From a virus (taxonomy: Duplodnaviria; Caudoviricetes): DNA of 61,743 bases. Position 1 is the stretch's first letter. Every line of letters starts with the position of its first letter. Shown here piece by piece: positions 7,438 to 48,045 of the stretch. Under the pieces are notes generated by a model. That model did not search any database, was not told the origin of the DNA, and was given only the letters and a program-made list of their open reading frames with translations. The stretch is taken from the IMG/VR virus record IMGVR_UViG_3300032893_000044, positions 1 to 61,743 of that record. One strand, 5' to 3'. The position numbers were made by a program, and so were the translations under genes.

Positions 7438-9137
7438 GTTTTCAATTAGTCGGCGGGGGTCAGGTTGTTTATCCTGCTTATGTCAGTTATTTATCCTTAG
7501 AGTTTTCTACCGGGAATACCAATTTAAGTTGGCCTACAGAATATCAAAATCTAAACCCTGTAGTAGCGGCCTGGAATCGGGTTAAAGCGGATGCAGACAA
7601 TCTCACTTTAACATTGCCAGATGCGCGTAAAACCAGCGTGGGACAATCTTTTATCATTGATAACTATGGGACGCATGCTTTTAATTTACTCACCAATGAC
7701 GGGGTTGTGTTAGATGCTATTGCGGCTCCTAGCGTGCAATATTTTGTGTTAAGTGACAATTCGACACAAGCGGGCACCTGGATTACCACTGGCTGGGGCG
7801 GGGGTTATGCGGCGGTGACATCGGTGGCGGCTGCGCCAGCTGCCGGGGTGGCTACGAATAACTTAGATATTTCGGGCAGTCCTATTACGGTAAGCGGTAC
7901 CTTTGTCTTTGATTTAAAAGCTGACTTATTGGCTTTGACCTCATTTGATGCGGGGACAGCCACGGGGATCGCGGTTAGAACGGCGGGCACTCCGACTTAT
8001 AGCTGGTCTTTACGGACTTTAGTGGGGACCGCACAGCAGATTGCCATTACGAACGGGAACGGAGTTGCCGGCAATCCTACCATTGGCTTAGAGGCTAATG
8101 TGACCGGCATTGACAGTATGCAAATTGGCAATATTCAGATTGAAGATAATGCCATTGAGGCGTTTGCTGGCAATGAAATTTTATTAGGCGCAGGGATTGG
8201 GGCTGATGAAATCAAAATCTTATCCAACGAGGTACAGATTTTAAACGGGACTGTTTTAGAGCTGATGGCGGCCGATGATACGCATTATGTAGGTTTTGAT
8301 GCGGGCACTATGGCATCTTCTTATACCTTGACGCTGCCAACGACTGCGCCGACCGCAGGCCAAGTCATGACAGCAGGCTCTATCACGCCTACTGCGTTAA
8401 TTTGGAGCAATGCGGCGAGTTTTTCAGGGAGTTCAACGGCCAATACCCTGCCTTATTTTACCAATGATACTGGCACTATTGGCGATACCGGAATTACGGT
8501 TGGGGGGGGCGGTTTAAATGAATTGTCGGGCCTTCAGTCAGTAACGGTGCAAGATTTAGCCATTGGTTCGGCAGGCAGCACGATTATTTCCAGCACCACG
8601 TCGATTCAATTTAACTCCAATGTAGGGTATGACACGATCGTCAATCGTAATCTTACCTTATTAGCGGCGGGTGAGATTCACTTAAACAAGGCCGGAAATG
8701 ATTATTATAGCGGTTTTAGCGGGAACAACTCAGCGATTGCCAACAACGTGTGGATTTTACCAGCGGCTGATGGCGCTTCAGGCAGTTTTATCACCACTAA
8801 CGGCTTTAAGCAGCTCAGCTTTAGCTCAGTGACTGTGGCCTCCTTAACCAAGGCCTGGGTAACCTTTCAAGGGTCCACAGCTACCATTTATGAGGAATCT
8901 AATGTAGGGAGCGTTGCAAGCGCGGGAACCGGTACTTATACCATCACTTTTACCACGGCATTTTCAAATACCTATTATGGCATGGCAGGTTATGCTTATG
9001 ATGCTGGCGGCACAACGCCCGGTATTGTAGTGATTACAAATATTATCAGCACTTCCCAATGCACCGTGAAAACTTATAATTTAACAGGAAGCGCGGTGAA
9101 CTTTGGCTATGTGGCATTAAGCTTTTTCGGAAACTAA
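7434..9137 (+). CDS. Tail fibre/spike protein
   Basis: G/T/S-rich beta protein; ITNGNGVAGNPTI, YTLTLPTTAPTAGQV, C-terminal KAWVTF..NVGSV..GTYTITF module. Confidence 0.75.
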   Translation: MSFQLVGGGQVVYPAYVSYLSLEFSTGNTNLSWPTEYQNLNPVVAAWNRVKADADNLTLTLPDARKTSVGQSFIIDNYGTHAFNLLTNDGVVLDAIAAPSVQYFVLSDNSTQAGTWITTGWGGGYAAVTSVAAAPAAGVATNNLDISGSPITVSGTFVFDLKADLLALTSFDAGTATGIAVRTAGTPTYSWSLRTLVGTAQQIAITNGNGVAGNPTIGLEANVTGIDSMQIGNIQIEDNAIEAFAGNEILLGAGIGADEIKILSNEVQILNGTVLELMAADDTHYVGFDAGTMASSYTLTLPTTAPTAGQVMTAGSITPTALIWSNAASFSGSSTANTLPYFTNDTGTIGDTGITVGGGGLNELSGLQSVTVQDLAIGSAGSTIISSTTSIQFNSNVGYDTIVNRNLTLLAAGEIHLNKAGNDYYSGFSGNNSAIANNVWILPAADGASGSFITTNGFKQLSFSSVTVASLTKAWVTFQGSTATIYEESNVGSVASAGTGTYTITFTTAFSNTYYGMAGYAYDAGGTTPGIVVITNIISTSQCTVKTYNLTGSAVNFGYVALSFFGN

Positions 9138-9308
9138 GATGAGCTGGTAGTATTGTTTAGCCCATTTGATGTAGCGAATATGATGATATGTTAAGAGAGA
9201 GCGAATGACTTTGCTCGGCGGCCCATCTTTTTCGACTCTACAAGTGATTCCAAATAGATTTCCTAGAACGTAATGAGTTTTAGCAAAGTTTAATGCGGTT
9301 TCGGTCAT
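9117..9308 (-). CDS. YY-motif small protein (cluster A)
   Basis: PSKVIRSLL..WAKQYYQLIL. Confidence 0.7.
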   Translation of the reverse strand: MTETALNFAKTHYVLGNLFGITCRVEKDGPPSKVIRSLLTYHHIRYIKWAKQYYQLILVSEKA

Positions 9309-9493
9309 ACTTTCCCCACTATGATTTTATAGTATTCTTTGGCCCCAATGTGGTCAAAATAATTTACTAAGAGGGCGCAAATGACTGTGCTTGGCGACGC
9401 ATTTCTTGCTATTATCAAACCGTATCCAAATACGCTTCCTACGACGTAATGAGTTTCAGAAATGTCTAATGAGGTAAATTCGGTATATGTCAT
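9305..9493 (-). CDS. YY-motif small protein (cluster A)
   Basis: PSTVICALL..AKEYYKIIVG; ATGA overlap. Confidence 0.7.
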   Translation of the reverse strand: MTYTEFTSLDISETHYVVGSVFGYGLIIARNASPSTVICALLVNYFDHIGAKEYYKIIVGKV

Positions 9494-9675
9494 TTTTCCC
9501 CCACTATGATTTGGTAATACTGTTTAGCCCAATCGATACCTTCAAAGTTATTATTTAACAAGTGATATGATAAGAATTCTTCGATAACTTCACAGGGTAA
9601 ACTTTTTTTTGGAACAAAACAACATGCGCTCGATCCCCTGAGGATGTAATAATTTTCATCAGACTTTTGTATCAT
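9490..9675 (-). CDS. YY-motif small protein (cluster A)
   Basis: PCEVIEEFL..WAKQYYQIIVG. Confidence 0.7.
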   Translation of the reverse strand: MIQKSDENYYILRGSSACCFVPKKSLPCEVIEEFLSYHLLNNNFEGIDWAKQYYQIIVGEK

Positions 9676-9856
9676 TTTTCCCCCATACAACTAAATGATA
9701 ATACTCTTTGACGAAAAAGCATCTATTAGAAAGAGTACGTAAAAAGCATGAAAGTATTTCGGCAGGATGAATATTGCTAGGAATACCATAGGGAAAAGTT
9801 TTTGAGATGATATAATGGGAATCTAGATTAGAGATAAAGCGAGGAGCTTCTGCCAT
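9659..9856 (-). CDS. YY-motif small protein (cluster A)
   Basis: PAEILSCFL..VKEYYHLVV. Confidence 0.7.
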   Translation of the reverse strand: MAEAPRFISNLDSHYIISKTFPYGIPSNIHPAEILSCFLRTLSNRCFFVKEYYHLVVWGKNDTKV

Positions 9857-10044
9857 AATTGGTCCTTTATAATATACTTGTAGTAAGCTTTAACCCATGC
9901 GAGCTCATGCCCCTTTAACATGTGTTTTAGCGTTTCAGTAGGTGTTTCACGACCACGCACGAAGACCAATCTGCCATAAGCTTTTAACGTTAGCTTAGGC
10001 GTGCCATAGTGTATATAAAACGCAGGATTTATGTTTTGCATCAT
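9823..10044 (-). CDS. YY-motif small protein (cluster A)
   Basis: PTETLKHML..WVKAYYKYII. Confidence 0.7.
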   Translation of the reverse strand: MMQNINPAFYIHYGTPKLTLKAYGRLVFVRGRETPTETLKHMLKGHELAWVKAYYKYIIKDQLWQKLLALSLI

Positions 10045-10202
10045 TTTTGCCTCATTATACGCTTGTAGTAATCTTTAACCCACATGAGCTCATTGTTAGT
10101 GTCAGTGAACATGTATTTTAGCGTTTTAGGAGGTGTGCCAGGACCATATACGAAGCATGTACCGCCATAAGCTTGTAACACAATATTTATATTTTGCATC
10201 AT
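10041..10202 (-). CDS. YY-motif small protein (cluster A)
   Basis: VYGPGTPPKTLKYMF..WVKDYYKRIMR; close paralog of 35063-35239. Confidence 0.7.
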   Translation of the reverse strand: MMQNINIVLQAYGGTCFVYGPGTPPKTLKYMFTDTNNELMWVKDYYKRIMRQK

Positions 10203-10414
10203 GCTTTCCCCACTATGATTTGGTAGTATTCTTTGGGCCATTTTAACAGACTACCGGTAATAAAGAGGAGACGTTCTAGCGCTGCGCCTGGGTTGGCATT
10301 TTTAGAGACAGCGCAACCATAACCAAAATAAAAATTGCTTGAAAGTATGTGATATTCAGTATAAATATGAGGAACAAAAGAATGCGTATACAGTATTACT
10401 TCCTGTTCCATCAT
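10199..10414 (-). CDS. YY-motif small protein (cluster A)
   Basis: PGAALERLL..WPKEYYQIIVG. Confidence 0.7.
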   Translation of the reverse strand: MMEQEVILYTHSFVPHIYTEYHILSSNFYFGYGCAVSKNANPGAALERLLFITGSLLKWPKEYYQIIVGKA

Positions 10415-10424
10415 TCTTTCGCTC

Positions 10425-10787
10425 TCATACTTGTCGTGGCTTTGAAACAGTACATACTCGGCCTATCACAAATTGATAATATTCTTTCAAAAATTTCTGG
10501 TAGCGTGGATCTGCCCAAAAGTCAAAGCTGAGTTTTAAAAACTCAGTAGGACTCATCAAAATCATTTTTCGCGTAATAGTGTGTAGATAATGAAAATGAT
10601 GGTTAATCATACTAATTAGAAGTTTTCTTTCTTGTTCTGTATATTGGGAATACCCATTCTTAGTAACTAAACCATAATACTGCCTAAAAAAAGGCAAAAC
10701 AACGGACATCCAGCGTTGTGTTCTAGCGATATGCCACCATACTTCATAAGGAGCATAACCTAAGAAATCAGTAGGATTAAGTACCAT
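10425..10787 (-). CDS. YY-motif protein with two tandem modules (cluster A)
   Basis: PTDFL..FFRQYYGLV and PTEFL..FLKEYYQFVIG. Confidence 0.7.
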   Translation of the reverse strand: MVLNPTDFLGYAPYEVWWHIARTQRWMSVVLPFFRQYYGLVTKNGYSQYTEQERKLLISMINHHFHYLHTITRKMILMSPTEFLKLSFDFWADPRYQKFLKEYYQFVIGRVCTVSKPRQV

Positions 10788-10883: not shown

Positions 10884-11294
10884 TTAGTCAATGACAGGGA
10901 AAATCTGCCCTTCTAAGTCTGCTTGACGCTGTGAGCGCATAATGTATAAGCCTTTTTTCAAAGGAACAGGATTATGCTCACCGGTGGGTCGATCTTCTTT
11001 CATATGGTGATGTTCTAGCGTTGTATCTTCTTTAACCACAACCAAAAAGGTATTGAAGCGATCCATATTGGCCGCTTTGTAAACCGTTACTTTGCCCGGA
11101 TCTGCTACCCGGTGATGATGCGCGGTTGCTTCACCTTCGATAATCGTAATGCCGCCCTTTTCATCTAATCCCAATTTTTCTAGCGTTTTTTCAAAGGTGC
11201 TCATATCTAAACTGCAATCACCAATCGCTAAACAAGTGCTATCGCTAACTCGATTAAAATAAACATCCCCTTGATGACCACTGTAATTTTCCAT
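10884..11294 (-). CDS. Conserved His-rich protein, usual partner of DUF6745-type proteins
   Basis: HQGDV..EGEATAHHH..EH..L.KGLY..QR motif. Confidence 0.65.
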   Translation of the reverse strand: MENYSGHQGDVYFNRVSDSTCLAIGDCSLDMSTFEKTLEKLGLDEKGGITIIEGEATAHHHRVADPGKVTVYKAANMDRFNTFLVVVKEDTTLEHHHMKEDRPTGEHNPVPLKKGLYIMRSQRQADLEGQIFPVID

Positions 11295-13234: not shown

Positions 13235-13924
13235 TTAAACTTTAGTTTTCAGCCTTTTAATGGCCTGTAACGCTTGCTTTTCCGTTAGTTCATGGAAAGT
13301 ACCTACTTTATAGTATTCTAGCATTTTAGCAATACCCTCAGTATCTAATTTTTCAAAAGCGATTTCCTTTAACTCATTTAAGGTCGGCTCTAAAACAAAA
13401 TGCTGCGTCACATCATCGACACTAGACGGCCTGACCGCCGGTACGGGTATTGTTTTAACCGGTGCATTGATGCGCTTAGGTGAAGCTTTCTTGATATCAC
13501 CTTCCCCTTCATCTTCTGGACTTTCTTCAGACTGAGTAATGCCTAAAATAGCCATCAGAGCATATCTGCGCCCATAACTAATGGTAGCTCCTACAGATTG
13601 GATCCACCCTTTGCCCCGCATTTCTTCCACCATCAAATCTAAAGAAGACTGTAGCCATTGTCCAGAATTATGCAACAATAGAGTGGTAATTCTGACTGAT
13701 TTGTTGCATTCTCCTTCAATATGCTGTGTGATACTGAGCCCTTGTTGCGCTAAAAGCTTTCTTACTTGCCCTAATAAATTTTCTAAGGTGGCATAATCAT
13801 AACTATATTTTTTGCCTTCCCGAGTCAGCACATCGACATGACCATCTTTTTTAATATCCGAAACCAGCGTTTGAAATTGCGCTAAGGCTTGAGACAACTC
13901 TTTCAACTCTGTTGAATTATGCAT
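13235..13924 (-). CDS. erf: ERF-family single-strand annealing recombinase
   Basis: Y.YATL, LLHNSGQW..S, QSVGATISYGRRYALMAILGI signature. Confidence 0.9.
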   Translation of the reverse strand: MHNSTELKELSQALAQFQTLVSDIKKDGHVDVLTREGKKYSYDYATLENLLGQVRKLLAQQGLSITQHIEGECNKSVRITTLLLHNSGQWLQSSLDLMVEEMRGKGWIQSVGATISYGRRYALMAILGITQSEESPEDEGEGDIKKASPKRINAPVKTIPVPAVRPSSVDDVTQHFVLEPTLNELKEIAFEKLDTEGIAKMLEYYKVGTFHELTEKQALQAIKRLKTKV

Positions 13925-14023: not shown

Positions 14024-14260
14024 GTGATTAAGAAAAAAAGAAGCACGGCGGAACGTTTGGCTTTACAAGAAGAACGCAAGAATCGGGTCACCTACATTAA
14101 ACTTCCTTCTTCGGCCGTGAAACAGGAACTAAAAGCGATCGCTCGCGCTGAAAACTTAACGTCTTTGTCTGCTTTGCTGCATATTTGGATTTTAAGAGGT
14201 TTAGAACAGTATAAAGCAGATAAGCAAATGAATCCGGAAACCAAATTAATTAAGTTTTAG
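14024..14260 (+). CDS. Ribbon-helix-helix (Arc/CopG-like) transcriptional regulator
   Basis: VTYIKLP..VKQELKAIARAEN.SLSALL strand-helix-helix pattern. Confidence 0.6.
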   Translation: MIKKKRSTAERLALQEERKNRVTYIKLPSSAVKQELKAIARAENLTSLSALLHIWILRGLEQYKADKQMNPETKLIKF

Positions 14261-14650
14261 ATAGTCGGTGAGACCTTTTTTAGCCTCATCGACGCTATAC
14301 CAGACCATAGTCTGATAGCCCAGTTCTTGGCAAGACGTTAAGAACTCCTGTTGGCTTTCAGTTAGTTTGTTTCCTTTAGTCTTAAATTCAGCGACAAGGC
14401 CGTGATAGGATGCTCGGGGATAAAGACAGATAATATCGCTGACGCCGGGAGTGACGCCTTCTGCTTTGAGTAGTTTTGCTTCTAGCGCATGACGGCTGCC
14501 GCCATTGGCGGGGTGAAAGGTCACTTTGCGTACCTGCGGGTATTGGTAGCGGAGCCATTGAAAAAATGCGCGTTGATGTTGCGCTTCTTGGCGTCGGGGT
14601 TTTTTGCGAGGCTTTTTAGGGGCTGGGGTAAGCAAATTTAGCATAATCAT
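14246..14650 (-). CDS. VRR-NUC domain nuclease
   Basis: FHPANGG..LKAEGVTPGVSD..EFKT..LTESQQEF. Confidence 0.9.
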   Translation of the reverse strand: MIMLNLLTPAPKKPRKKPRRQEAQHQRAFFQWLRYQYPQVRKVTFHPANGGSRHALEAKLLKAEGVTPGVSDIICLYPRASYHGLVAEFKTKGNKLTESQQEFLTSCQELGYQTMVWYSVDEAKKGLTDYLKLN

Positions 14651-31004: not shown

Positions 31005-31323
31005 CGCTTGGTTCCCCCTTATTGTAAAATTTTAGACCCTCTTGATATTCTGTCTTTAATTCAGAAAGCTTAGTGGTTAGCCTCTCAGTAATTTGCGCTA
31101 GAAGCGTGACAGAGAAAAGATAATGTTTTTCATTTCTAGAATTGTTTATTCCGAGCTCATTGATGAAAGCAGAAATATGCGTTCCCCGTGGAACCCACAT
31201 TTCGTCATCTAAGGCTCCCATCCCCGATAGCTCGGAAGCTAGCTCACGAAAAGCTCTCGTGTAAACGTTAGCTCTTTTATGAAACAGATCTATAAACTCT
31301 TGCTTTGTCATACTAACTTTCAC
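30994..31323 (-). CDS. Hypothetical protein
   Basis: ORF in leftward operon. Confidence 0.5.
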   Translation of the reverse strand: MKVSMTKQEFIDLFHKRANVYTRAFRELASELSGMGALDDEMWVPRGTHISAFINELGINNSRNEKHYLFSVTLLAQITERLTTKLSELKTEYQEGLKFYNKGEPSGDN

Positions 31324-31729
31324 TTTTTTCTCCTTTTTTCATAACCGCTTGATAAAACTGCTTGAGATCTGAGAAAGGAAAATCATGCGCCATGCCTTTT
31401 AAAATAATGGCACGCTCTACCTTTAAACTTCGCACCTCTAGGGTACGCGATTCTGCCTCTTTCATGAAAAAGACTTCAGTGGGCCAGATATCCCAGTTCT
31501 CTCCTGAGTACTTTTTGTGCAACTGCCCCACTGCACCCCCAGGAAGCCGAAGCCAGCCTGCATTGAACTTTTTACTTATTCTTCTAGTATCAAAATCAGA
31601 CACCACAACCGACAAAGGCTTGCCCTCCTCTGCACACTTCTCACTTAGCCTTTTTAAGCCTTTATCCCAGGTCCTCATAGCGTCTGTCTCTTTAGTTAGC
31701 GTCTTCAAATCTTTTTTCCATTTCTTCAT
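31313..31729 (-). CDS. Hypothetical protein
   Basis: C-terminal LKQFYQAVMK resembles the YY motif. Confidence 0.5.
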   Translation of the reverse strand: MKKWKKDLKTLTKETDAMRTWDKGLKRLSEKCAEEGKPLSVVVSDFDTRRISKKFNAGWLRLPGGAVGQLHKKYSGENWDIWPTEVFFMKEAESRTLEVRSLKVERAIILKGMAHDFPFSDLKQFYQAVMKKGEKSES

Positions 31730-33926: not shown

Positions 33927-34139
33927 ATGATAGACAGAACTAGACTACCCGATTTTCATCTTCGTCCTCCCTGGTATCGTGATGGGTTCACTCCGCAGAG
34001 TGCGGGCGTATACTATGGAATACAACATAAATGTTGTCCAAAAGGAGTGATTCAAGCTAGCTCTGCTTGGTGGCGACATCATCCGAACAGAACAATGACT
34101 TTTTGGCGATCTTATTATCAAACGGTATTAAAAAGATGA
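33927..34139 (+). CDS. YY-motif small protein (cluster B)
   Basis: CPKGVI..FWRSYYQTVLKR. Confidence 0.7.
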   Translation: MIDRTRLPDFHLRPPWYRDGFTPQSAGVYYGIQHKCCPKGVIQASSAWWRHHPNRTMTFWRSYYQTVLKR

Positions 34140-34348
34140 TAGGCAGAACTGGCTTCCCCGCTTTTTACCTGGTTACACCCTGGTGTATGGCAAACGTTTC
34201 TCCGCGCTCTGCGGGGGTATACTATGGGATGCAGCCGGACTTTTGTCCAAAGCAAGTCATGCGAAGCGGGCTCGATTGGTGGCGAAATCATTCGCACCGG
34301 ACGCTAGAGTTTTGGCGGTCTTACTATCAAACGGTGCTAAAGAGGTGA
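34136..34348 (+). CDS. YY-motif small protein (cluster B), tandem duplicate of previous
   Basis: SAGVYYG..CPKQVM..FWRSYYQTVLKR. Confidence 0.7.
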   Translation: MIGRTGFPAFYLVTPWCMANVSPRSAGVYYGMQPDFCPKQVMRSGLDWWRNHSHRTLEFWRSYYQTVLKR

Positions 34349-34494
34349 ATCTCTACGCTCGCATATTTAAGGCTGTCTTGACTTTTGACTGGGCCATGGT
34401 GGACGCGATGAGGACATACTACCGTGTCATCCTCCGAGAGCCGACTGAGGCAGAGCGTAAGATGATAGGGGGAGAAGATGACGGACAGGTTTGA
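34345..34494 (+). CDS. YY-motif small protein (cluster B)
   Basis: GTGA overlap; MRTYYRVILRE. Confidence 0.6.
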   Translation: MNLYARIFKAVLTFDWAMVDAMRTYYRVILREPTEAERKMIGGEDDGQV

Positions 34495-34693
34495 AAAGTT
34501 TAATACTGAGTATATGTCAGAGTGGGCTCTCTGGGGAAACAAGCATCTTGCTGCTTACCTCTATTCCCTTCCTGAAGCGATTACTCGGTCAGAAACCTTG
34601 AGCTACATTTTGTGGAACTATGAGATCGGCTCAAGTGTCGGCAGATACTTTGTTTATACTCTAAAAAAATACTACCAGGCAGTCGTGAGATGA
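34478..34693 (+). CDS. YY-motif small protein (cluster B)
   Basis: RSETLSYILW..LKKYYQAVV. Confidence 0.7.
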   Translation: MTDRFEKFNTEYMSEWALWGNKHLAAYLYSLPEAITRSETLSYILWNYEIGSSVGRYFVYTLKKYYQAVVR

Positions 34694-34875
34694 CGGACAG
34701 GTTTAAGGAAAAGGATATACCGCTGTGGGCTATATATGGCGCAGCAGGGCTGCCCGACTACTTCTTCTACTCTCTTGATGAATCCAGCGCTTCTCGGTCA
34801 GAACTTTTGAGCTACCTTTTGTGGTACTATGACCCTGCTACTCTAAAAAAATACTATCGGGTAGTCACGCAATGA
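34690..34875 (+). CDS. YY-motif small protein (cluster B), paralog of previous
   Basis: RSELLSYLLW..LKKYYRVV. Confidence 0.7.
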   Translation: MTDRFKEKDIPLWAIYGAAGLPDYFFYSLDESSASRSELLSYLLWYYDPATLKKYYRVVTQ

Positions 34876-35066
34876 AGCAAGATATATGGCAGAAGAACCT
34901 CGCGCACCGTATGCAGCATCCTGAACAGTATTATGTAATTTGGGGCTTTAACTACATCTCAAAAGATATACGCCCCAGTAAAGCTATGTGCGAGCTGATA
35001 TGTGATCGCCCTGCCTTTTTGGCAGTAGCCAAAGAGTACTACAAAATCATACTGAGAGAAGCATGA
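34872..35066 (+). CDS. YY-motif small protein (cluster B)
   Basis: PSKAMCELI..AKEYYKIIL. Confidence 0.7.
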   Translation: MKQDIWQKNLAHRMQHPEQYYVIWGFNYISKDIRPSKAMCELICDRPAFLAVAKEYYKIILREA

Positions 35067-35239
35067 TACAAAGCCTTAAACAATATCTTGGTGAGCCTAT
35101 GATAGTTTTAGAAGCCAATGGCGGATGGTGCTGGGTATATGGTCCTGGCACACCTCCTAAAACGCTGACATACCTGCTTACTGACAATGATTTCATATGG
35201 GCTAAAGCGTACTACAAGCACATCATGAGGAAAGCATGA
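35063..35239 (+). CDS. YY-motif small protein (cluster B; below ORF-track cutoff)
   Basis: Translated by eye: VYGPGTPPKTLTYLLTD..WAKAYYKHIMRKA. Confidence 0.7.
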   Translation: MIQSLKQYLGEPMIVLEANGGWCWVYGPGTPPKTLTYLLTDNDFIWAKAYYKHIMRKA

Positions 35240-35460
35240 CACAGATATATTACTGGGGCCTTGTGACACGAGAAGACCACCTATCCCTCGCCATCACTGA
35301 TGTGCACATCCTACAGAAGCGTCGCCCAGAATGGTTTCGCACCTTCTTTCAGGGCGAAGAAGCTTTCTTGACCCCAGAAAGGGTGATGCGTTACTTTACA
35401 ATGCAATCTTTCATAAACCTCGCATTCATCCGCGACTACTACCAATGGGTCATGCCATGA
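35236..35460 (+). CDS. YY-motif small protein (cluster B)
   Basis: PERVMRYF..IRDYYQWVM. Confidence 0.7.
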   Translation: MTQIYYWGLVTREDHLSLAITDVHILQKRRPEWFRTFFQGEEAFLTPERVMRYFTMQSFINLAFIRDYYQWVMP

Positions 35461-35648
35461 GCACAGAATATCGTCACGCACTGGTAGAAGACTTTCTTCA
35501 CGTGTCGCGCCTATATATCGGCCTCAACTCTTTCCCTTTACGCTACTATTACCAGATGGCAATTCTGAATCCGTATCCCACCGATGAGGAATTTATGCAT
35601 AACGCTCATCTGCTATCTGAGAAGCTCGCCCTGCGGAAGAAAACATGA
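35457..35648 (+). CDS. MSTEYRH-type small protein, copy 1
   Basis: LRYYYQMAILNPYPTDEEF. Confidence 0.7.
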   Translation: MSTEYRHALVEDFLHVSRLYIGLNSFPLRYYYQMAILNPYPTDEEFMHNAHLLSEKLALRKKT

Positions 35649-35830
35649 GCACAGAATATCGTCACCCCATCGCAAAACAATTCCTCGACTACTTGCGCAC
35701 ATATCCAAGTCTGCGTTGTCTTATCTTACGCGCCCATTACCAGATGGCAATTCTCAACCCGAATCCCACCGATAAGGAATTTATTAATATGAGGATTTTG
35801 TTCCTAACCGGCGTCCGGAAGAAAGCATGA
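35645..35830 (+). CDS. MSTEYRH-type small protein, copy 2
   Basis: LRAHYQMAILNPNPTDKEF. Confidence 0.7.
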   Translation: MSTEYRHPIAKQFLDYLRTYPSLRCLILRAHYQMAILNPNPTDKEFINMRILFLTGVRKKA

Positions 35831-36015
35831 GCACAGAATATCGTCACCCGCTGATAAAACACTTTCTCCACGCGGTGCGCACATATAGCAGTATCAGACC
35901 TTTTGCCTCACGTCACTACTACAAGATGGCGATCCTCAATCCCTATCCCACCGATGACGAATATCTTCATAACGCTCGTCTACTAGACAAGCGCGCCCTG
36001 CGGAGGAAAGCATGA
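35827..36015 (+). CDS. MSTEYRH-type small protein, copy 3
   Basis: RHYYKMAILNPYPTDDEY. Confidence 0.7.
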   Translation: MSTEYRHPLIKHFLHAVRTYSSIRPFASRHYYKMAILNPYPTDDEYLHNARLLDKRALRRKA

Positions 36016-36236
36016 GCACAGAATATCGTCATGCGCCAGTAAAACACTTTCTCCAGGCAGTGCGCACATATCCAAGCCTGCGCTCTTTTCGCTTGCGGTA
36101 TCACTACCAAATGGCAATTCTCAATCCGTCTCCTACCGATGAGGAACTGGTTCATAACCAGCGTAAAATTCCACAAATAGTTTCTTCAGCTCCTCTCCTC
36201 CGGTTACTGCATTCTCGCCCGCTTCTGCTGCGATGA
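36012..36236 (+). CDS. MSTEYRH-type small protein, copy 4
   Basis: LRYHYQMAILNPSPTDEEL. Confidence 0.7.
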   Translation: MSTEYRHAPVKHFLQAVRTYPSLRSFRLRYHYQMAILNPSPTDEELVHNQRKIPQIVSSAPLLRLLHSRPLLLR

Positions 36237-37925: not shown

Positions 37926-38067
37926 GCTTTTCTCCTTTAATTACCGCCTGGTAATAGCCTTTCAAGGTATAGGTGAAAAAAGGCCAGCTGCGAAACAACA
38001 TGGTCATCGTTGCAACCGTCTGGATAGGACATTGAGTAATATCAGGTACTTTGAACTTAACTGTCAC
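37900..38067 (-). CDS. YY-motif small protein (cluster C; below ORF-track cutoff)
   Basis: Translated by eye: WPFFTYTLKGYYQAVIKG. Confidence 0.65.
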   Translation of the reverse strand: MTVKFKVPDITQCPIQTVATMTMLFRSWPFFTYTLKGYYQAVIKGEKRELYVKTP

Positions 38068-38332
38068 CCTTTTCTCCTAACTCTACTTCTTCCTCCATAA
38101 ATCTCCCAATACACAGATTTCTGACAATCTCTGCGGTCACGTACATATCTGGCGGGTCTATATCGCGCAAGTCTCCGTCATATTTACGCCTAATCTCTTG
38201 GAGTTTGTTAATCTCAGAATCTAGGCATGCTTGAATGATTTCTATATGCTTGTCAAGAAGAAAGCGCGGATAGCCTATGTGTCGCCATAAATGTTTTCTG
38301 AGCTTGTCTAAGTCTTGCATGGAGACTTTCAT
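38057..38332 (-). CDS. Hypothetical protein
   Basis: MKVSMQDLDK start with AGGAG RBS. Confidence 0.55.
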   Translation of the reverse strand: MKVSMQDLDKLRKHLWRHIGYPRFLLDKHIEIIQACLDSEINKLQEIRRKYDGDLRDIDPPDMYVTAEIVRNLCIGRFMEEEVELGEKGDS

Positions 38333-38514
38333 GACTTTTCTCCTTGAACTACCCTCTGATAATGTATACGCGCTATGTGCGGGAAAAGATGCCAAATCTG
38401 ACAAGCCAACTTCAACTCTCCAGCAAGCGATAAATGGTCGGGAACTACCAGAAATGAATGATCGAGCTTTGTATGGTCGAGATTTGGTGGCCATATGGTA
38501 AATGTTGTCATCAT
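38329..38514 (-). CDS. HY-motif small protein (cluster C)
   Basis: ELKLACQIW.LFP.IARIHYQRVV. Confidence 0.65.
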   Translation of the reverse strand: MMTTFTIWPPNLDHTKLDHSFLVVPDHLSLAGELKLACQIWHLFPHIARIHYQRVVQGEKS

Positions 38515-38941: not shown

Positions 38942-39192
38942 TTTATCTTCCTCATTACCCGCCGATAATGTCTACGCGCAAGTGTTGAGTCAATATGCCA
39001 GAGCGCACAAGCTAACTTTAACGCTTCCGAAGGCTTGAGCTTTTTTTCTTTTGCCAGGTAATTAAAGGAAGACTGCGCAGACTCGTGTGGCTGCAAGCCA
39101 TATCTGCACAAAAACTGATGATACAATCCGCCATCTCTAAATATGGGGCCATATCTTCGCAGTGGCTTAAACCATCCGCCAGTTATAAACAT
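38932..39192 (-). CDS. HY-motif small protein (cluster C)
   Basis: PSEALKLACALW..LARRHYRRVM. Confidence 0.65.
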   Translation of the reverse strand: MFITGGWFKPLRRYGPIFRDGGLYHQFLCRYGLQPHESAQSSFNYLAKEKKLKPSEALKLACALWHIDSTLARRHYRRVMRKIKCL

Positions 39193-39347
39193 GTTCTTAG
39201 AGAGCCCCCTATCCCTAAAACTACATGCTGATAACGCCTGCGCACAAGGCTTGGAAAAAACCCCCAAACCTCACAAGCCATTTTCAAAGCTTCAGCAGGC
39301 GTGCGTTCTTTCGCCATAAAGCGCTCAAACAAATATTCATACATCAT
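39183..39347 (-). CDS. Small protein of the same family (cluster C; below ORF-track cutoff)
   Basis: Translated by eye: TPAEALKMACEVWGFFPSLVRRRYQHVV. Confidence 0.6.
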   Translation of the reverse strand: MMYEYLFERFMAKERTPAEALKMACEVWGFFPSLVRRRYQHVVLGIGGSLRTCL

Positions 39348-39474: not shown

Positions 39475-42060
39475 ATGGCTTTCGAAGACGAATTCGCTCT
39501 CCTAGAGCAAGACCTCTTACCAGACGATGCGTCTGCGTATGAAATCGCGGCAAAGGGCCCGGCAGACGGAGGAACAACCCCTGCCGGGAGCGATTTTTAC
39601 GAAAACCTCGCAGAGCACATCGATGTCTCCATTCTATCCGGTCTTGGGGCCAGATTACTAGACGAGATTAAAGAAGATATCGAATCCCGCCGTGAATGGG
39701 AACAAACCATCGCCCTCGTCATGAAGTATCTAGGCGAAAAGGTAGAAGAATCCAAAAGCGTTCCCTTCTTTCGCGCCTGTTCTTCCTTTGATACCACTCT
39801 CACCACGGCTGTCTATCGTAACTATAGCGTCTACAAACGCGAACTCTTTCCCCCGGAAGGTCCTTGCAAATCTAAAATCAATGGTATCCCCACCAAAGAA
39901 ACCGAAGAAATTGGGGAACGCCGCAAGATTTTTGCTAACTACTATCTAACGACAGTCGACAAAGAATATTACCCTGACAGCGAAAAACTGCTGTTATACA
40001 CCATCTATTGCGGCTCTGGTTTTAGGAAAATCTACCAAGACCCTTTAACCAAGATGCCGGTAAGCCGTTTCATTCGACCGCAAGATTTTATTGTCAACGT
40101 CCATACCACTACTATCCTTTCCTCCTCCCGCCTCACACACCTCTACGAGCTCCCCAAACAAGATATCTATCTGCGTCAGCAGGATGGGTATTTTACCGGG
40201 GAGTCCCTCCCTAATGTGAGCGACGATACGGAAAGCGAGCCCAGTGTTATCACGGAGACCACCAAAAACATCACCGGCATCCAGACGGACAATACCGAAA
40301 ACAAATCGCTGTTCAAGTTCTATGAATGTCACGTCATCCTAGACTATACCGACTTAAAGGGCCAAGACCCCGCTGCCGACCGCAACATTCCCTGCCCCTA
40401 CATCGTTACCATCTGCGAAGCCACAAAAAAGATTGTGCGCATTCAGCGGAATTGGGAAGAAGGCGACGAGCAGTTCAAACGCAAAGAATACTTCGTGCAC
40501 TACCAGTTCCTCCCAGGCTTTGGCATGTATGGCATCGGGATGGCCCATTTAACCGGATCCAATGCCATTACCCTGACAACGATTTTGCGTCAGCTCATTG
40601 ATGCTGGCACGCTCAAGAACTTCCCCGGCGGCTTAAAGTCCACGTCTGCACGCTCGAATCAAAACAACAAGTCGATCGGGCCCGCGGAGTGGCAAGAGGT
40701 GGAGACCGGAGGCAAAGCCATTCAAGACTGCTTCATGCTCATGCCCTATGCAGAGCCTTCCCAAGTCTTGGCTGCCTTGCGCGGTGAACTCAAAACTGAA
40801 ACCTTAAATGTCGTCGCAGCCGCCGAGGAAGGCCTCCAAGAAATGGGGCCTAATACCGCACCCACGACAGCCTTAATCAGCCAGGAAGTTGCAGCACGCT
40901 TGCAATCGGCTTCTTTAATGTCCATGCATTCGAGCTTGGCATACGAATTTAGCTTGCTGTTCGCCATCTTTGGCGAATGCTTGCCGGATGAGCCTTATCC
41001 TTTCAAGGTGCCAGGTTATGAGGGAGCCGTTCTAAAGACGGACTTTAACAACAATATTGACACAGTCCCGGTCTCTAATCCGAATGTGCTCACCTCATCC
41101 CATCGTCTTATCAATGCCGATGCTTTGCTGAAGCTCGCCTCCCAAGCTCCCGATGTCTACAACATCCGTGAAACCCAAAAACGCATGTTAGAGGCGATGA
41201 ACGTCGAAAACATCGACGCGGTCTTAAAGCCAGAGCCTGTCCCGCGCTCTTTAGATGCAGTCAGTGAAAACATGCTCATTTTAAAGGGGCAGCCGGTCAA
41301 AGCCGCGCACTTTCAAAATCACAAAGCCCATAACACGGTGCATAACAAGTTTATTCAAGACGTGAGTCAAAACCCTATCTTCATGCAGCTGAACCCCATG
41401 GCGGTTCCTGATACCACGCTGCATATCCAGCAGCACTCGGCCTTAGCTGTCTTGCAAGAGTGGTACGCACAAGACCCGCTCTTTGCCGACAGCATTGTGC
41501 AAAAGTTCATGCAGCAAAACAACATCAATCCGCAAGAAGAACTTTCTGAAGAACAAATCATGCTTATCCCAGAAGTGCAAAACCGGGTGACAGAGATTAA
41601 CGCCGAAGAAGCCATGCAGCAGATGGAAGCACAAGCCGCTCAGCAGCAGGCCATGATGGAAGCGCAGATGAATCAGGTTGACCCGGCGCAGGTGATGCTA
41701 GCAGACGTCGAGCAGCAGCGTGAAAAGACGCAGATTGAAGCCGAAGTTGCGCTGCGTAAAGTTGAGACCGAAAAAGAAATCGCTGACCAGAAAGCCGAGA
41801 CCGAAAGCTTTAAGACGCAGCTCAAGTTTGAGGGCGACCAAGCCAAGATTGAAGCGGACCAAGAGATGGCCCGCGAAAAGGCTGAAGTCGATGTGATGTT
41901 AGCGGAAATGAAGCAGCAGGCAGCCCACGAGCAAAACCTCTTAAAACATGAAGCAGCCAAACAGCAAAACGAAATGAAGCATCAGGCGGCCAGAGAACAA
42001 CAGGCCAATCAGCATCTTCACCAATCCTTACATAAACCTAACCCTAAAGAGGAAAGATAA
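39475..42060 (+). CDS. Portal protein
   Basis: FYENLAE, SRREWE, ELFPPEGP.K, GSGFRKIY.D, YFVHY.FLPGFG.YG.G, LRQLIDAGTL.N.PGG; long helical C-terminal barrel. Confidence 0.9.
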   Translation: MAFEDEFALLEQDLLPDDASAYEIAAKGPADGGTTPAGSDFYENLAEHIDVSILSGLGARLLDEIKEDIESRREWEQTIALVMKYLGEKVEESKSVPFFRACSSFDTTLTTAVYRNYSVYKRELFPPEGPCKSKINGIPTKETEEIGERRKIFANYYLTTVDKEYYPDSEKLLLYTIYCGSGFRKIYQDPLTKMPVSRFIRPQDFIVNVHTTTILSSSRLTHLYELPKQDIYLRQQDGYFTGESLPNVSDDTESEPSVITETTKNITGIQTDNTENKSLFKFYECHVILDYTDLKGQDPAADRNIPCPYIVTICEATKKIVRIQRNWEEGDEQFKRKEYFVHYQFLPGFGMYGIGMAHLTGSNAITLTTILRQLIDAGTLKNFPGGLKSTSARSNQNNKSIGPAEWQEVETGGKAIQDCFMLMPYAEPSQVLAALRGELKTETLNVVAAAEEGLQEMGPNTAPTTALISQEVAARLQSASLMSMHSSLAYEFSLLFAIFGECLPDEPYPFKVPGYEGAVLKTDFNNNIDTVPVSNPNVLTSSHRLINADALLKLASQAPDVYNIRETQKRMLEAMNVENIDAVLKPEPVPRSLDAVSENMLILKGQPVKAAHFQNHKAHNTVHNKFIQDVSQNPIFMQLNPMAVPDTTLHIQQHSALAVLQEWYAQDPLFADSIVQKFMQQNNINPQEELSEEQIMLIPEVQNRVTEINAEEAMQQMEAQAAQQQAMMEAQMNQVDPAQVMLADVEQQREKTQIEAEVALRKVETEKEIADQKAETESFKTQLKFEGDQAKIEADQEMAREKAEVDVMLAEMKQQAAHEQNLLKHEAAKQQNEMKHQAAREQQANQHLHQSLHKPNPKEER

Positions 42061-45009: not shown

Positions 45010-45573
45010 ATGGCAAGAGAAGTCAGACGCGGCGAAGAAGCTGCCCGCGGTCAAAATGAAATGAGTCACGAGGCTCGTTCAGATAATCATCGACGCTTAC
45101 AAGAGCGTATTGCTGCTTTGAGAAAAGTACAAAACATGGATTATTCTAATCCCATGGCGATTTTGAAAGATATCGTTCCGCCCGGCTGGGAATATGCCTT
45201 CAAACGTATCTTCATTCGAGACTTTTATGACCAAGGCAACTGGGGGATGGCGCAGGCCAACGGCTGGGAACCTGTCCCAGCAGATAGACACCCAGAATTG
45301 GCATTGATGAAAGATATCACCGTGCATGAGCAGTTCAGAAACTCTTACTTTTATAAAGGCGGTATCTTGTGCGAACGTCCTTTAGTTATCAGCTTAGAGC
45401 ATCGCAAGAGAGTCCGAGACGAAGAGCTCAGAAAAGTTAATGACTTGGAAACTTTAAAGAACACCATGAACGAGGCTGGCATTATCCCCGGCAATTGGGT
45501 TGCTAACAAAGTGCAGCCTGCGCAAGGCGGCTCTTTTGAATCCAGCTATGATGAGTCTTTAGGTCGATTTTAA
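45010..45573 (+). CDS. Conserved head-module protein
   Basis: PPGWEY.F.R, GWEPV.A..HPE, GG.LC.RP. Confidence 0.7.
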   Translation: MAREVRRGEEAARGQNEMSHEARSDNHRRLQERIAALRKVQNMDYSNPMAILKDIVPPGWEYAFKRIFIRDFYDQGNWGMAQANGWEPVPADRHPELALMKDITVHEQFRNSYFYKGGILCERPLVISLEHRKRVRDEELRKVNDLETLKNTMNEAGIIPGNWVANKVQPAQGGSFESSYDESLGRF

Positions 45574-45834
45574 AATCGTTTGGTAGTAATCCCGATATTG
45601 CACTAAATTGGGCGAGTTGGGATTACTATAGCGAGCTGTCAAAGCCTTAAAGTAAAGATGAACCTGAAGGGGCGGTATGCCTTGTTTCTTGCTTTCGTGA
45701 GCCAGAAAGTTTCCGAACTTGGGGTTAATTGGGTGCGGCGCAAGTAATATCGAATTTAGCCATGCGCTATAAATCTTATCAATTGCTTCAAAAGACGGGC
45801 AGATTTCTAATATGTCATCCCGATACCTTAGCAT
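45559..45834 (-). CDS. YY-motif protein (cluster D)
   Basis: FGNFL..IPP..YRDYYQTIL. Confidence 0.65.
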   Translation of the reverse strand: MLRYRDDILEICPSFEAIDKIYSAWLNSILLAPHPINPKFGNFLAHESKKQGIPPLQVHLYFKALTARYSNPNSPNLVQYRDYYQTILKST

Positions 45835-46127
45835 TTTGCAAGCTCCATAATCGTTTGGTAGTAAGACTTGAACTCCTCTAAAGCGCGGTCCATTGGAGAA
45901 GCAAAAGAGATATACTTTTGCCAAAATAATAACACATTTGCAGAGTGTATGGTATGTATGTGGCTGCGATTAGGATGAGGGTAAGAAAGAAAAAACTTGC
46001 CAAAGGAAGGAATACTATAGTCATGTCGATAAGCAAAATAAACATTATAAATTGCGTCAAACTGAGGCACGTGCGTGCGAAGAAAGTCATAATACCATGG
46101 AAGAATATGACTAACCATTTTGTGCAT
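45828..46127 (-). CDS. YY-motif protein (cluster D)
   Basis: FGKFFL..FKSYYQTIM. Confidence 0.65.
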   Translation of the reverse strand: MHKMVSHILPWYYDFLRTHVPQFDAIYNVYFAYRHDYSIPSFGKFFLSYPHPNRSHIHTIHSANVLLFWQKYISFASPMDRALEEFKSYYQTIMELAKC

Positions 46128-46449
46128 CCTTCATGATGGCTTTATAGTAGCGAATTGCATAAAAATCCCAATCCATCCCTAACGTCCCGCACATTAAAAA
46201 TTTTAACGCCATTCCTGGGGGAACCTTATGTTGATTGACGTAAAGATAGTGGGCAAACCCTTTAGGTAAACCTTCTATATTATGCCAATGCTCGCTTTCT
46301 AGCAAGATATACTCTAGCGATATACTCTTTATATCATCCCAATGTCGATTGTCTATCGGGCAATAATCTTTATTAAAAAGCCGAATAATTTTAAGATTCC
46401 AGTGTTTCAGTTTTTGCTTTCTGTACCAGCTGCGTAAAGCTTTTAGCAT
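46111..46449 (-). CDS. YY-motif protein (cluster D)
   Basis: YLY..Q.KVPPGMALKFLM..IRYYKAIMKDA. Confidence 0.65.
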   Translation of the reverse strand: MLKALRSWYRKQKLKHWNLKIIRLFNKDYCPIDNRHWDDIKSISLEYILLESEHWHNIEGLPKGFAHYLYVNQHKVPPGMALKFLMCGTLGMDWDFYAIRYYKAIMKDAQNG

Positions 46450-46733
46450 GATGCATCCTTCATGACGGCTTGGTAGTAGAGTTTTGGGTCAGGATATCTT
46501 GTTAAGTTAGGTTCGTCTGTTAATAAATAATAAAGCGTCATTGCCGGTGGGATTTTACGCTGTTTTATATAAAGATAGCGCAGAAAGCCGTACAACCCTG
46601 GGTGATGGAAATCTTCTGTCCAATAGTTGGGATCTCCCTGGGGGAAATAATCATTCAGAAAAATTTTGCGAATTGTATACACCCATTTATTTAATCTTTT
46701 TTCTCTGTTTCTTTGACGTATCCACTTAAACAT
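46443..46733 (-). CDS. YY-motif protein (cluster D), paralog of neighbour
   Basis: YLY..Q.KIPPAMTLYYLL..KLYYQAVMKDA. Confidence 0.65.
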   Translation of the reverse strand: MFKWIRQRNREKRLNKWVYTIRKIFLNDYFPQGDPNYWTEDFHHPGLYGFLRYLYIKQRKIPPAMTLYYLLTDEPNLTRYPDPKLYYQAVMKDASC

Positions 46734-46735
46734 AT

Positions 46736-46906
46736 TTACTCCTTTAGTTCTAAGATATATTGATAGTAACGTCGTGAATAAACAAGAGACCGCCGTGTAC
46801 TCTCAAAGCAGGAGCCACGCAGAAGATATCTAAAGATATCAGAAGGAGGTTTATGATACATATAAAAAATATCAGATGTTGCTCCAATGAATTTGTTTTT
46901 ACTCAT
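46736..46906 (-). CDS. YY-motif small protein (cluster D; below ORF-track cutoff)
   Basis: Translated by eye: PPSDIFRYLL..SRRYYQYIL. Confidence 0.65.
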   Translation of the reverse strand: MSKNKFIGATSDIFYMYHKPPSDIFRYLLRGSCFESTRRSLVYSRRYYQYILELKE

Positions 46907-47132
46907 CTTCTGCTTCGTTTGAGTTTACTATCGCTTGATAAGACCGCTTTAGCTCTGACAAATCTGTTAATCGAGGATGACAAACGAAATGAGTAAGGCT
47001 AACTTTAAATCTTTCGCTGGTGGTTTTGGCGGCAAGCATCGCCAGCTCTCTCCGAAGCATAATAGCGCTTACCTGTGCCATCACATTGTTCAGCTCTGAG
47101 AACAGATTAATACCCCGAGCAGTTCTTATCAT
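46899..47132 (-). CDS. YY-like protein (cluster D)
   Basis: LKRSYQAIV; ATGA overlap. Confidence 0.55.
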   Translation of the reverse strand: MIRTARGINLFSELNNVMAQVSAIMLRRELAMLAAKTTSERFKVSLTHFVCHPRLTDLSELKRSYQAIVNSNEAEDE

Positions 47133-47362
47133 TCCCTTCCTCTTATGGCCAATTGGTAATATCGTTTTACGTCTACTAAGCCAAATTTCCAGCTTAAAAA
47201 TCTTAAAGCGATTCTTCTTGGTACATTTGAATGATAATACAAATATTGATATAAGCGCACACCTTGCCGTACTTGCCGGGAGCGCCAGTAGGCTTTTAAA
47301 ATGGGCCAGTTCCACTGGTCTAGTACGTTATCCCTCTCATCTAGCTCATCTAAGATGCTCAT
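47129..47362 (-). CDS. YY-motif small protein (cluster D)
   Basis: YLY..VPRRIALRFL..VKRYYQLAI. Confidence 0.65.
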   Translation of the reverse strand: MSILDELDERDNVLDQWNWPILKAYWRSRQVRQGVRLYQYLYYHSNVPRRIALRFLSWKFGLVDVKRYYQLAIRGRE

Positions 47363-47559
47363 TTAGGCATGCCCATCACATGTTGATAATAATGCTTAAT
47401 CCTTGGTAGCCGATAATAGCTTAAAAAATAGTTAAATACTTCAGATTTTGAAAGGTCAGTTGTATTAAATAAATATTGATGAGGAAATTCATAGGGCGAA
47501 ATAAGGTAACCGTTGACAATTCTTTCATTTAAAGAATCAAGATATTCCTTGTCGCTCAT
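47359..47559 (-). CDS. YY-motif small protein (cluster D)
   Basis: YLF..SEVFNYFL..IKHYYQHVMG. Confidence 0.65.
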   Translation of the reverse strand: MSDKEYLDSLNERIVNGYLISPYEFPHQYLFNTTDLSKSEVFNYFLSYYRLPRIKHYYQHVMGMPK

Positions 47560-47808
47560 TTAGGCATGCCCAGTATTAGTAATTCCTGTTACTAACTTAT
47601 AATACCATTTCATGTCACTTATAAATGGCTCGCTGATGCTTTTGTCAAAAGTGCGTAAACACTCAAAAGCAACGTTAATTGCATAACACTGTTCATATAA
47701 AAAGTGGGCAAAAGTGTATTCTGAGTAAGGCCGCTTCTCCGATCCTAAGTTGAACAAATACGTCGACAGCATCGATGCCCATAGAGCGCGCTTATCATTA
47801 TTAGTCAT
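47560..47808 (-). CDS. YY-motif small protein (cluster D)
   Basis: FAHFLY..MKWYYKLVTG. Confidence 0.65.
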   Translation of the reverse strand: MTNNDKRALWASMLSTYLFNLGSEKRPYSEYTFAHFLYEQCYAINVAFECLRTFDKSISEPFISDMKWYYKLVTGITNTGHA

Positions 47809-47817
47809 TCAAATATC

Positions 47818-48045
47818 TCACTTATTCCTTGTTAGGTCCCGATAAAACGGCTTAAACGCTTCACGCCAACCTGGCCCAAACTCAATCAAGAGCCAAGCAA
47901 GCACTTCATGAGCGGGTATCTCTGTCAAAATAAAGCTTATAAAGTCTCGGCTCAGGACATCAAATCTTGTCCCCGCGCCAAACCTGTTTTGTACAAAAGG
48001 CTTCCAATACAATTGGTTTAAAATCCGAAGTCGCTTTTTAGTCAT
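47818..48045 (-). CDS. YY-like small protein (cluster D)
   Basis: IPAHEVLAWLL..FKPFYRDL. Confidence 0.6.
   Translation of the reverse strand: MTKKRLRILNQLYWKPFVQNRFGAGTRFDVLSRDFISFILTEIPAHEVLAWLLIEFGPGWREAFKPFYRDLTRNK

Follow-up and report, generated by a model that had tools for sequence, protein, structure and literature searches.

Four gene arrays in a tailed phage genome encode 38 diverged members of a small-protein family

What are the dozens of small, closely packed genes that fill four clusters in the virus record IMGVR_UViG_3300032893_000044, and what might they do for the virus that carries them? The record is a single contig (61,743 bases; completeness estimated at 100%), and the stretch analysed here (the window) is the whole of it; it is the complete genome of a tailed phage. 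An original prediction, made from the DNA letters, had described the clusters as insertions that encode about 38 small proteins sharing a C-terminal helix with a double tyrosine (YY), and had read this helix as a constant docking module joined to variable heads, as in anti-defence or host-takeover adaptors that would bind a common partner. As judged by sequence analysis, the 38 genes encode real small proteins, and these proteins form one old paralogous family.

The four clusters lie where they had been placed, and we refer to them as arrays A, B, C and D, with 8, 12, 8 and 10 member genes, respectively (38 in total; Table 1). Start codons were picked by coupling to the upstream stop codon. 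The products are as small as had been claimed (49–120 amino acids (aa), with eight members below 60 aa), and the reading frames of all 38 members are open. Coupling of neighbouring genes by ATGA or short overlaps also holds: 31 of the 35 intra-array junctions overlap, 20 of them by 4 nucleotides (nt; ATGA or GTGA), and the other four are gaps of 0–10 nt. The member genes sum to 8247 nt, in agreement with the earlier estimate of about 8 kb, and take up 13.4% of the genome. The G+C content is 36.8% in array A, 46.7% in B, 43.5% in C and 38.8% in D, for a genome value of 44.3%. Public protein sets hold independent gene calls for at least 21 of the members.

The shared motif occurs far beyond chance. 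A strict form of it ([KR].[YH]Y[QKRHE].[IVA][IVMLT] within the last 45 aa) was counted in open reading frames (ORFs) of at least 35 aa and was present in 33 of them, all inside the arrays, compared with a mean of 0.11 and a maximum of 2 in 100 local shuffles. We also built hidden Markov models (HMMs) from single arrays and searched them against the 38 members, 519 other ORFs and 418 shuffled or reversed decoys. Members align across arrays: 21 of the 38 were found by the model of a foreign array at E<0.01, compared with none of the decoys or other ORFs, among which nothing fell below E 0.06 (best decoy, E 0.18). The other 17 members have no foreign-array match at E<0.01 and were joined through the alignment of all members; the weakest are D1, D6, D10 and B3. 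Conservation is carried by mixed codons, as the invariant tyrosine is encoded by TAC in 20 members and TAT in 18, and the basic residue two positions ahead of YY by six codons (AAA, AAG, CGN and AGG types).

Alignment of the 38 domains gives 49 well-filled columns with a regular order of elements. A hydrophobic aromatic segment (F/Y-x-Y/C-x-V/I) is followed by a turn that often ends in T/S/P-Pro and then by a first helix, (A/S)-(E/K)-(V/A)-(L/F)-x-x-(L/A)-(L/C)-x-x-(W/Y), which a loop of variable length joins to the second. The upstream P-xx-(A/V)-(L/I)-xx-(L/F)-L helix of the original prediction is real, with Pro at 21 of 37 residues in its column and helical periodicity (~95 degrees; moment matched by 0.7% of column permutations). 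The constant C-terminal helix was likewise confirmed, in the form (W/F)-(A/L/V)-(K/R)-x-(Y/H)-Y-(Q/K)-x-(V/I)-(V/I/M), with a periodicity of ~90 degrees that 9% of permutations match. The column test gave no strand periodicity in the first segment. This segment is absent from B3 and from B9–B12 (the MSTEYRH subfamily), the latter bearing a C-terminal extension instead, and the minimal core is therefore probably the two helices. The second Tyr is invariant (38/38), the basic residue two ahead of YY is kept in 37 of 38 members, and the first Tyr is lost in D6, D10 and C8. Members have a median isoelectric point (pI) of 9.15 (above 8 in 25 of 38) and are 15% aromatic; the medians for ORFs of at least 150 aa are 6.1 and 8%.

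The idea of a constant module with variable heads was right about the C-terminal helix and overstated the modularity, since the domain of ~49 positions makes up most of the protein. The N-terminal extension has a median length of 17 aa, is at most 15 aa in 16 of the 38 members and exceeds 40 aa in only four, and close paralogs are homologous in their N-termini too (e.g. B1 and B2, with 57% identity over 70 aa). For most members, a small module bearing large variable heads is the wrong picture. A second domain was considered in the N-terminal half of A8, where a YY-like stretch lies ~60 residues before the motif; the family profile gives it no support and it was rejected.

Selection on the family was assessed from nonsynonymous and synonymous distances (dN and dS) in the 38 most similar pairs, of which 31 were measurable and seven had a saturated synonymous distance. 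dS exceeded dN in 28 of the 31; dN/dS was below 0.6 in 24, between 0.6 and 1 in four, and 1.01–1.16 in three (C5/C8, A5/A6 and C6/C7). Genes that evolve fast under constraint would show such a mixture. Among the pairs, aa identity peaks at 69% and dS never falls below 0.25, so the family is old and diversified and not freshly amplified. On a tree of the domains, the array label changes 12 times compared with 21.1 times in shuffles (as low in 0 of 200), and arrays A and B interleave, with A6 beside B7. This pattern points to growth mostly by local duplication, probably with exchanges between A and B such as A6–B7; the tree resolves a minority of its forks, because the columns are so few.

Relatives of the family were sought widely. 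Among 1.84 billion representative proteins, a profile of the 38 domains had 26 hits at E≤0.001, 21 of them on the phage's own contig; the other five were rejected as relatives, as they are translated repetitive DNA and match over few residues only. All ten members that were looked up are singletons at 90% identity, from a single contig. The family had been called unrecognised, which agrees with our scans: at E≤0.1, no two of the 38 members matched the same Pfam or PHROG family, and a Pfam/PHROG scan of ten full-length members gave no hit of note. PDB sequence profiles gave nothing for A1 and insignificant matches for the C and A/B subfamilies. In the ESM Atlas the best score was 0.83 for C5, which is noise level, and B7 had no usable match.

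Three known domains were tried and rejected. For the bromodomain, suggested by the P-D-Y-Y-x-x-I motif region, only a 13-residue stretch matches TAF1 bromodomain chains (E ~0.1); a bromodomain is a four-helix bundle of ~110 aa with this motif in the ZA loop, ahead of further helices, and in most members the chain stops a few residues after the motif. The Arc (PF03869) and HTH_17 (PF12728) models had no match in the window at E≤10 and find matches in 10 of 14 and 14 of 14 control genomes, respectively.

Local searches detect far weaker matches than a whole-database E-value allows; they likewise found no member in ~850 kb of related phage DNA (including 36 terminase loci and eight metagenome portal loci), in five further related records (which bring the whole related records covered to ten) or in 22 capsid loci. 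Among candidate hosts, five metagenome-assembled genomes (MAGs) and 41 genomes of one order had no member, many of these genomes being incomplete. The absence of the family from the 1.84 billion representatives and from all related DNA examined would fit fast turnover. Within the window, one further ORF (31313-31729; Table 1) was weighed as a 39th member. It gave a profile E of 0.006 and a domain E of 0.013 against 0.033 for the best decoy, and was judged no better than that decoy; relatives of the whole protein were not found. It could be one more member of the family, or a different protein that bears a single copy of the helix.

The contig ends (1-27 and 61717-61743) are alike in 25 of 27 bases and the assembly therefore closes on itself, as a circular or terminally redundant molecule would; the two mismatches suggest variants within the population. 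Phage DNA is present in one sequencing run only, a wetland metagenome that is probably its source. Logan contigs built independently from that run match 31000-39265 without difference at ~10x, which backs the assembly locally, across arrays B and C; they come from the same probable source run and are hence no independent sample, and no other cover was present in the 58% of the run that was read. The nearest relative in the collections is the IMG/VR record G001, with identities of 49% in the terminase, 54% in the portal and 73% in the capsid protein. The collections hold no close relative, metagenome contigs come no nearer (portal identity at most 40%), and phage GenBank records gave no match to a megablast of the head region or a tblastn of A7.

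Each array has a distinct genomic setting. Array A closes a minus-strand operon with genes for an Erf-type annealing protein (13235-13924) and a VRR-NUC nuclease (14246-14650), and abuts the end of one of the genome's tail-fibre genes. Arrays B and C are located between terminase and portal, where the gap measures 9.1 kb here and 6.7, 5.0, 1.2, 0.7 and 0.2 kb in five complete relatives. Array D is inverted between two head-module genes (45010-45573 and 48277-49056). Across 17 related loci, the gap at this site (45573-48277 here) is 187–495 bp in nine and 1.5–3.4 kb in eight, and the filled gaps hold unrelated large plus-strand genes. Relatives carry toxin–antitoxin-like, helix-turn-helix (HTH) and other accessory genes at the array sites. 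The arrays thus occupy hot spots for accessory genes, and site D is a recurrent insertion site. The earlier description of all four clusters as inserted fits array D; it does not suit A, B and C, because small-gene arrays of another family stand at these sites in G001 and the three look like old array loci.

The arrays of G001 comprise 22 small genes of a different orphan family and ~10.7% of that genome (L037:1329-2569 (+) and L001:11601-17846). One sits between the homologue of 10884-11294 and the tail-fibre gene and shares array A's order and orientation, and the other occupies the terminase–portal gap, as arrays B and C do here; site D has no array in G001 and its gap is 0.3 kb. The two families are alike in small size (the longest G001 ORFs have a median of 93.5 aa), in aromatic content (14% in G001), in a hydrophobic segment followed by two helices and in tight packing. 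In the G001 family the last helix, its most conserved part, reads (A/L)-K-(D/N)-(F/I)-I-(M/L)-x-x-(V/I)-x-K, and this family too is nearly limited to its own contig (seven hits, five on that contig). Between the two families hhalign gave a probability below 1%, and there were no cross hits between the genomes at E≤0.1. Their shared position makes common descent plausible. Since G001 does likewise with a different family at the same loci, the comparison also suggests a lineage-wide strategy with quick turnover of accessory repertoires. Another related record, G002, has its own sets of small paralogs (L042:3886-6134), among them about six proteins of ~80 aa that are rich in Gly, Asp and aromatic residues and three proteins with one N-terminal stretch in common.

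What, then, might the 38 proteins do? The pattern is nearest to that of virus-encoded families that interact with host factors, and for this reason we rank first the reading that they are small accessory proteins for host interaction or counter-defence, an old repertoire that diverges fast on a single scaffold, a tentative preference that we put somewhat short of an even chance. In most members the scaffold would be compact, a hydrophobic strand-like segment followed by two amphipathic helices, the second of which would set conserved Lys/Arg, Tyr and Gln beside hydrophobic core positions. The family would expand mainly by tandem duplication at accessory hot spots, followed by strong divergence, and its members would be co-expressed from the tightly coupled polycistronic arrays. 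The proteins would then act on the host, most likely by inhibiting host defence or other host proteins, and the conserved helix would hold the fold and might also offer a surface for common contacts or oligomerisation, with specificities that differ with the variable surfaces. If so, dozens of small natural inhibitors on one scaffold could be drawn from the arrays, which would also allow the diversification of such phage repertoires to be studied.

Several points weigh against a counter-defence or host-interaction role. No member resembles the known anti-defence families in Pfam or PHROGs, and the basic pI would suit nucleic-acid binding no less than protein inhibition. With array A in a recombination operon and C and D beside head genes, the arrays show no common expression class. 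Site counts in the promoter scans did not exceed shuffles, and for that reason the best sigma-70-like site of the scanned region, just upstream of array D (Table 1), is only a lead. Among the runs listed, one DNA run and no RNA run contains the phage, and the entire case stands on one contig at ~10x depth. A stronger version of the host-interaction reading would make the arrays a natural binder library, 38 co-expressed, surface-diversified copies of a two-helix scaffold that neutralise many host defence or regulatory proteins, possibly through mixed oligomers of the Tyr helix, in arrays whose turnover would be fast enough to leave G001 with a 22-copy version changed past recognition at two of the loci. 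We consider this version unlikely; if true, tailed phages would have a counter-defence strategy based on a repertoire, which has not been described for them.

The main rival is that the members are small dimeric nucleic-acid-binding proteins, built as strand-helix-helix (ribbon-helix-helix-like) or as a helical hairpin, whose paralogs would differ in the DNA or RNA sites they bind, or would form a coat on nucleic acid. Their size of 50–70 aa, median pI of 9.15 and 15% aromatic content would suit such a role, as would the hydrophobic segment, Pro turn and two amphipathic helices seen in the alignment columns and the Lys/Arg, Tyr and Gln conserved on the last helix. The order of elements and the spacing from Pro to Tyr are reminiscent of Arc-type repressors. 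Yet the PF03869 and PF12728 models are silent in the window at E≤10, there is no significant match among PDB sequence profiles, five members (B3 and B9–B12) are without the strand-like segment and the segment itself shows no strand periodicity. There are also no repeated operator sets, the sole repeated intergenic element having three copies, and we know of no precedent for 38 regulators in a 62-kb phage. Nucleic-acid binding is on balance an unlikely explanation, although it fits the charge and size of the proteins.

Less credible is a role in the virion, with the members packaged internally or ejected and the C-terminal helix acting as a capsid- or portal-targeting signal. Arrays C and D do flank the portal-to-capsid module (39475-42060; 49067-49975), and the proteins are small and basic with a constant terminal element on variable bodies. 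Against this, the head genes are transcribed in the other direction from arrays C and D, array A sits in the recombination operon, the conserved unit is a whole domain and not a short tag, and relatives with the same head genes are without the family, which makes a virion role improbable. We give slightly less credence still to a reading in which most of the duplication is neutral or selfish, many members are in decay and nothing unites them in function. Three pairs with dN/dS of about 1, the loss of the first Tyr from D6, D10 and C8, and the 17 members missed by foreign-array models at E<0.01 would suit such decay; all 38 frames are nevertheless open, the second Tyr is kept throughout despite synonymous variation, most pairs are under purifying selection, and 13.4% of a size-limited genome is a high cost. 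The weakest alternative, a compositional motif or DNA-level repeat in ORFs that are not genes, could draw on short DNA repeats at some gene junctions (repeat families D5, D13 and D14) and has almost no probability left, being refuted, as far as sequence analysis can go, by 33 motif ORFs against 0.11 in shuffles, amino-acid-level conservation with mixed codons, dS above dN in 28 of 31 pairs and the independent public gene calls.

The remainder of the genome holds the structural genes and several accessory genes listed in Table 1. Among the latter is a peptidyl-tRNA hydrolase, whose best bacterial matches (at most 58% identity) are gammaproteobacterial MAGs, several of them labelled Coxiellaceae, Legionellaceae or Rickettsiella; going by this one gene, the host may be a Legionellales-like gammaproteobacterium. 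The genome scan gave no tRNA genes and no Rfam matches. An A/T-tract element of ~23 nt is present in three copies (28668-28690, 32902-32924 and 33866-33888), each just upstream of the start of a minus-strand gene (28645, 32853 and 33811), and on the minus strand it reads like a promoter (TTTACA, 17 nt, TA-rich). In the replication and early region (17816-24007), five G+C-rich hairpins of the form AGCCCC...GGGGCT followed by T's are terminator-like. Three adjacent coiled-coil-like genes between arrays B and C were considered as paralogs and rejected, as they are not detectably related to each other.

Table 1. Arrays, family members and other features of the window. Profile E is the value from the all-member profile, which is low by construction as the members built it; foreign-array E is the value at which a profile from one array alone (named first) finds a member of another array.
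Feature	Position	Strand	Length (aa)	Profile E	Foreign-array E	Remarks
Array A	9117-10787	-				8 members
A1	9117..9308	-	63	3.7e-14	B 5.6e-6	
A2	9305..9493	-	62	3.8e-9	B 1.2e-3	
A3	9490..9675	-	61	4.2e-12	B 4.6e-5	ATG at 9675
A4	9659..9856	-	65	7.1e-14	B 2.7e-4; D 4.8e-4	
A5	9823..10044	-	73	2.3e-13	B 1.7e-5	
A6	10041..10202	-	53	1.3e-16	B 1.2e-8	ATGA-coupled start at 10202; 68% aa identity to B7
A7	10199..10414	-	71	5.4e-12	B 8.7e-3	
A8	10425..10787	-	120	4.7e-12	C 5.8e-3	N-terminal extension 59 aa
Array B	33927-36236	+				12 members
B1	33927..34139	+	70	2.3e-13		
B2	34136..34348	+	70	3.0e-13		ATGA start at 34136; 57% aa identity to B1
B3	34345..34494	+	49	1.3e-6		GTGA start; without N-terminal strand-like segment
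B4	34478..34693	+	71	1.5e-11	D 1.6e-6	
B5	34690..34875	+	61	5.3e-9	C 6.5e-3	
B6	34872..35066	+	64	1.3e-13	A 9.7e-9	
B7	35063..35239	+	58	4.8e-14	A 1.7e-11	
B8	35236..35460	+	74	5.0e-11	A 3.7e-3	
B9	35457..35648	+	63	1.5e-7		MSTEYRH subfamily; two-helix core N-terminal, ~22 aa C-terminal extension
B10	35645..35830	+	61	2.4e-8		MSTEYRH subfamily
B11	35827..36015	+	62	4.6e-9		MSTEYRH subfamily
B12	36012..36236	+	74	1.0e-8		MSTEYRH subfamily; 69% aa identity to B9, closest family pair
Array C	37507-39347	-				8 members and one non-member gene
C1	37507..37677	-	56	1.0e-13	B 6.4e-4	
C2	37674..37925	-	83	1.6e-10	A 1.2e-3	GTG start (gene caller: 63 aa, P0022)
C3	37900..38067	-	55	4.1e-10	B 9.6e-4	GTG start
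Non-member gene within array C	38057..38332	-	91			ATGA-coupled to C4; no family or Pfam match
C4	38329..38514	-	61	1.2e-11		
C5	38511..38690	-	59	2.4e-15		
C6	38687..38941	-	84	8.4e-11		
C7	38932..39192	-	86	3.9e-14	B 4.9e-3	ATG at 39192
C8	39183..39347	-	54	3.4e-15		R-Y replaces Y-Y; 76 nt 96% identical to C5
Array D	45559-48045	-				10 members
D1	45559..45834	-	91	2.4e-6	B 4.3e-3	ATG at 45834 (longest ORF 121 aa)
D2	45828..46118	-	96	7.1e-8		
D3	46111..46449	-	112	6.7e-11		N-terminal extension 60 aa
D4	46443..46733	-	96	2.9e-14	A 1.2e-4	
D5	46736..46906	-	56	2.1e-9	B 2.0e-3; A 3.6e-3	
D6	46899..47132	-	77	5.9e-7	none <0.01	Divergent; S-Y replaces Y-Y
D7	47129..47362	-	77	8.9e-11		
D8	47359..47559	-	66	8.5e-12	B 3.6e-7	
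D9	47560..47808	-	82	8.5e-9		
D10	47818..48045	-	75	8.1e-7	none <0.01	Most divergent; F-Y replaces Y-Y
Candidate 39th member	31313..31729	-	138			Orphan; last helix alone (last 15 residues) resembles the family
Best sigma-70-like site of the scanned region	48051..48079	-				TTGAAA, 17 nt, TAAAAT; 10/12 positions; just upstream of array D
Terminase-like gene	28740-30353					Weak Terminase_6C match under Pfam cut-off; 40-49% identity to terminases of five complete relatives
Portal	39475-42060					
Major capsid protein	49067-49975					~40-44% identity to annotated capsid proteins including Pelagibacter phage HTVC023P
SPFH/Band 7 protein	23951-24943	+				Accessory gene
Protein with DALR anticodon-binding domain	26477-27016	+				Accessory gene
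S-adenosylmethionine decarboxylase	28157-28645	-				Accessory gene
Peptidyl-tRNA hydrolase	32919-33527	-				Pfam E 5e-58
Three adjacent coiled-coil-like proteins	36204-37514	-	130-153			Acidic tails; between arrays B and C

Finally, we compared the arrays with known systems. We know of no other 62-kb tailed phage that devotes 13% of its genome to 38 diverged copies of an orphan domain, and word searches of the literature, as distinct from sequence searches, found no published description of such a case. The internal proteins of phage T4 are variable, small and basic and share an N-terminal capsid-targeting peptide that is cut off by the head protease, and some internal proteins of T4-type phages counter host restriction. 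They resemble the present family in having one constant terminal element on variable small basic phage proteins; they differ in that the element is a short N-terminal peptide there and a C-terminal domain of ~49 positions here, at a far higher copy number. The Arc/MetJ ribbon-helix-helix proteins (PF03869) are alike in their ~50 aa and in the predicted order of hydrophobic segment, helix and helix, whereas PF03869 finds nothing in the window at E≤10 and five members are without the first segment.

Two further comparisons concern the arrangement of the genes. According to the published account, homologues of the anti-CRISPR AcrID1 are multiplied within single rudivirus genomes, with 26 of 35 homologues in four viruses; they lie close together with low mutual identity, which its authors read as duplication and functional diversification (PMC11065993). 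The likeness is one of arrangement, many diverged copies of one small family clustered in the accessory regions of one virus. As that account describes them, the AcrID1 genes belong to archaeal viruses and lie at the genome termini, whereas here 38 copies are found in one tailed phage. Polyimmunity loci, as outlined in two reports, are tandem sets of small, often paralogous proteins thought to neutralise many toxin variants (PMC3482391, PMC3113570). The tandem arrays of small paralogous genes are alike; the polyimmunity loci are bacterial conflict loci, as opposed to a phage genome here. Pfam scans of the neighbouring genes found no toxin domain beside the arrays, and none of the 38 members matched a Pfam immunity family. 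Set against these systems, a small accessory family multiplied within a viral genome is known, and the protein family itself is new in that no relative of it was found; its scale of 38 copies and the parallel array in a related phage are unusual.

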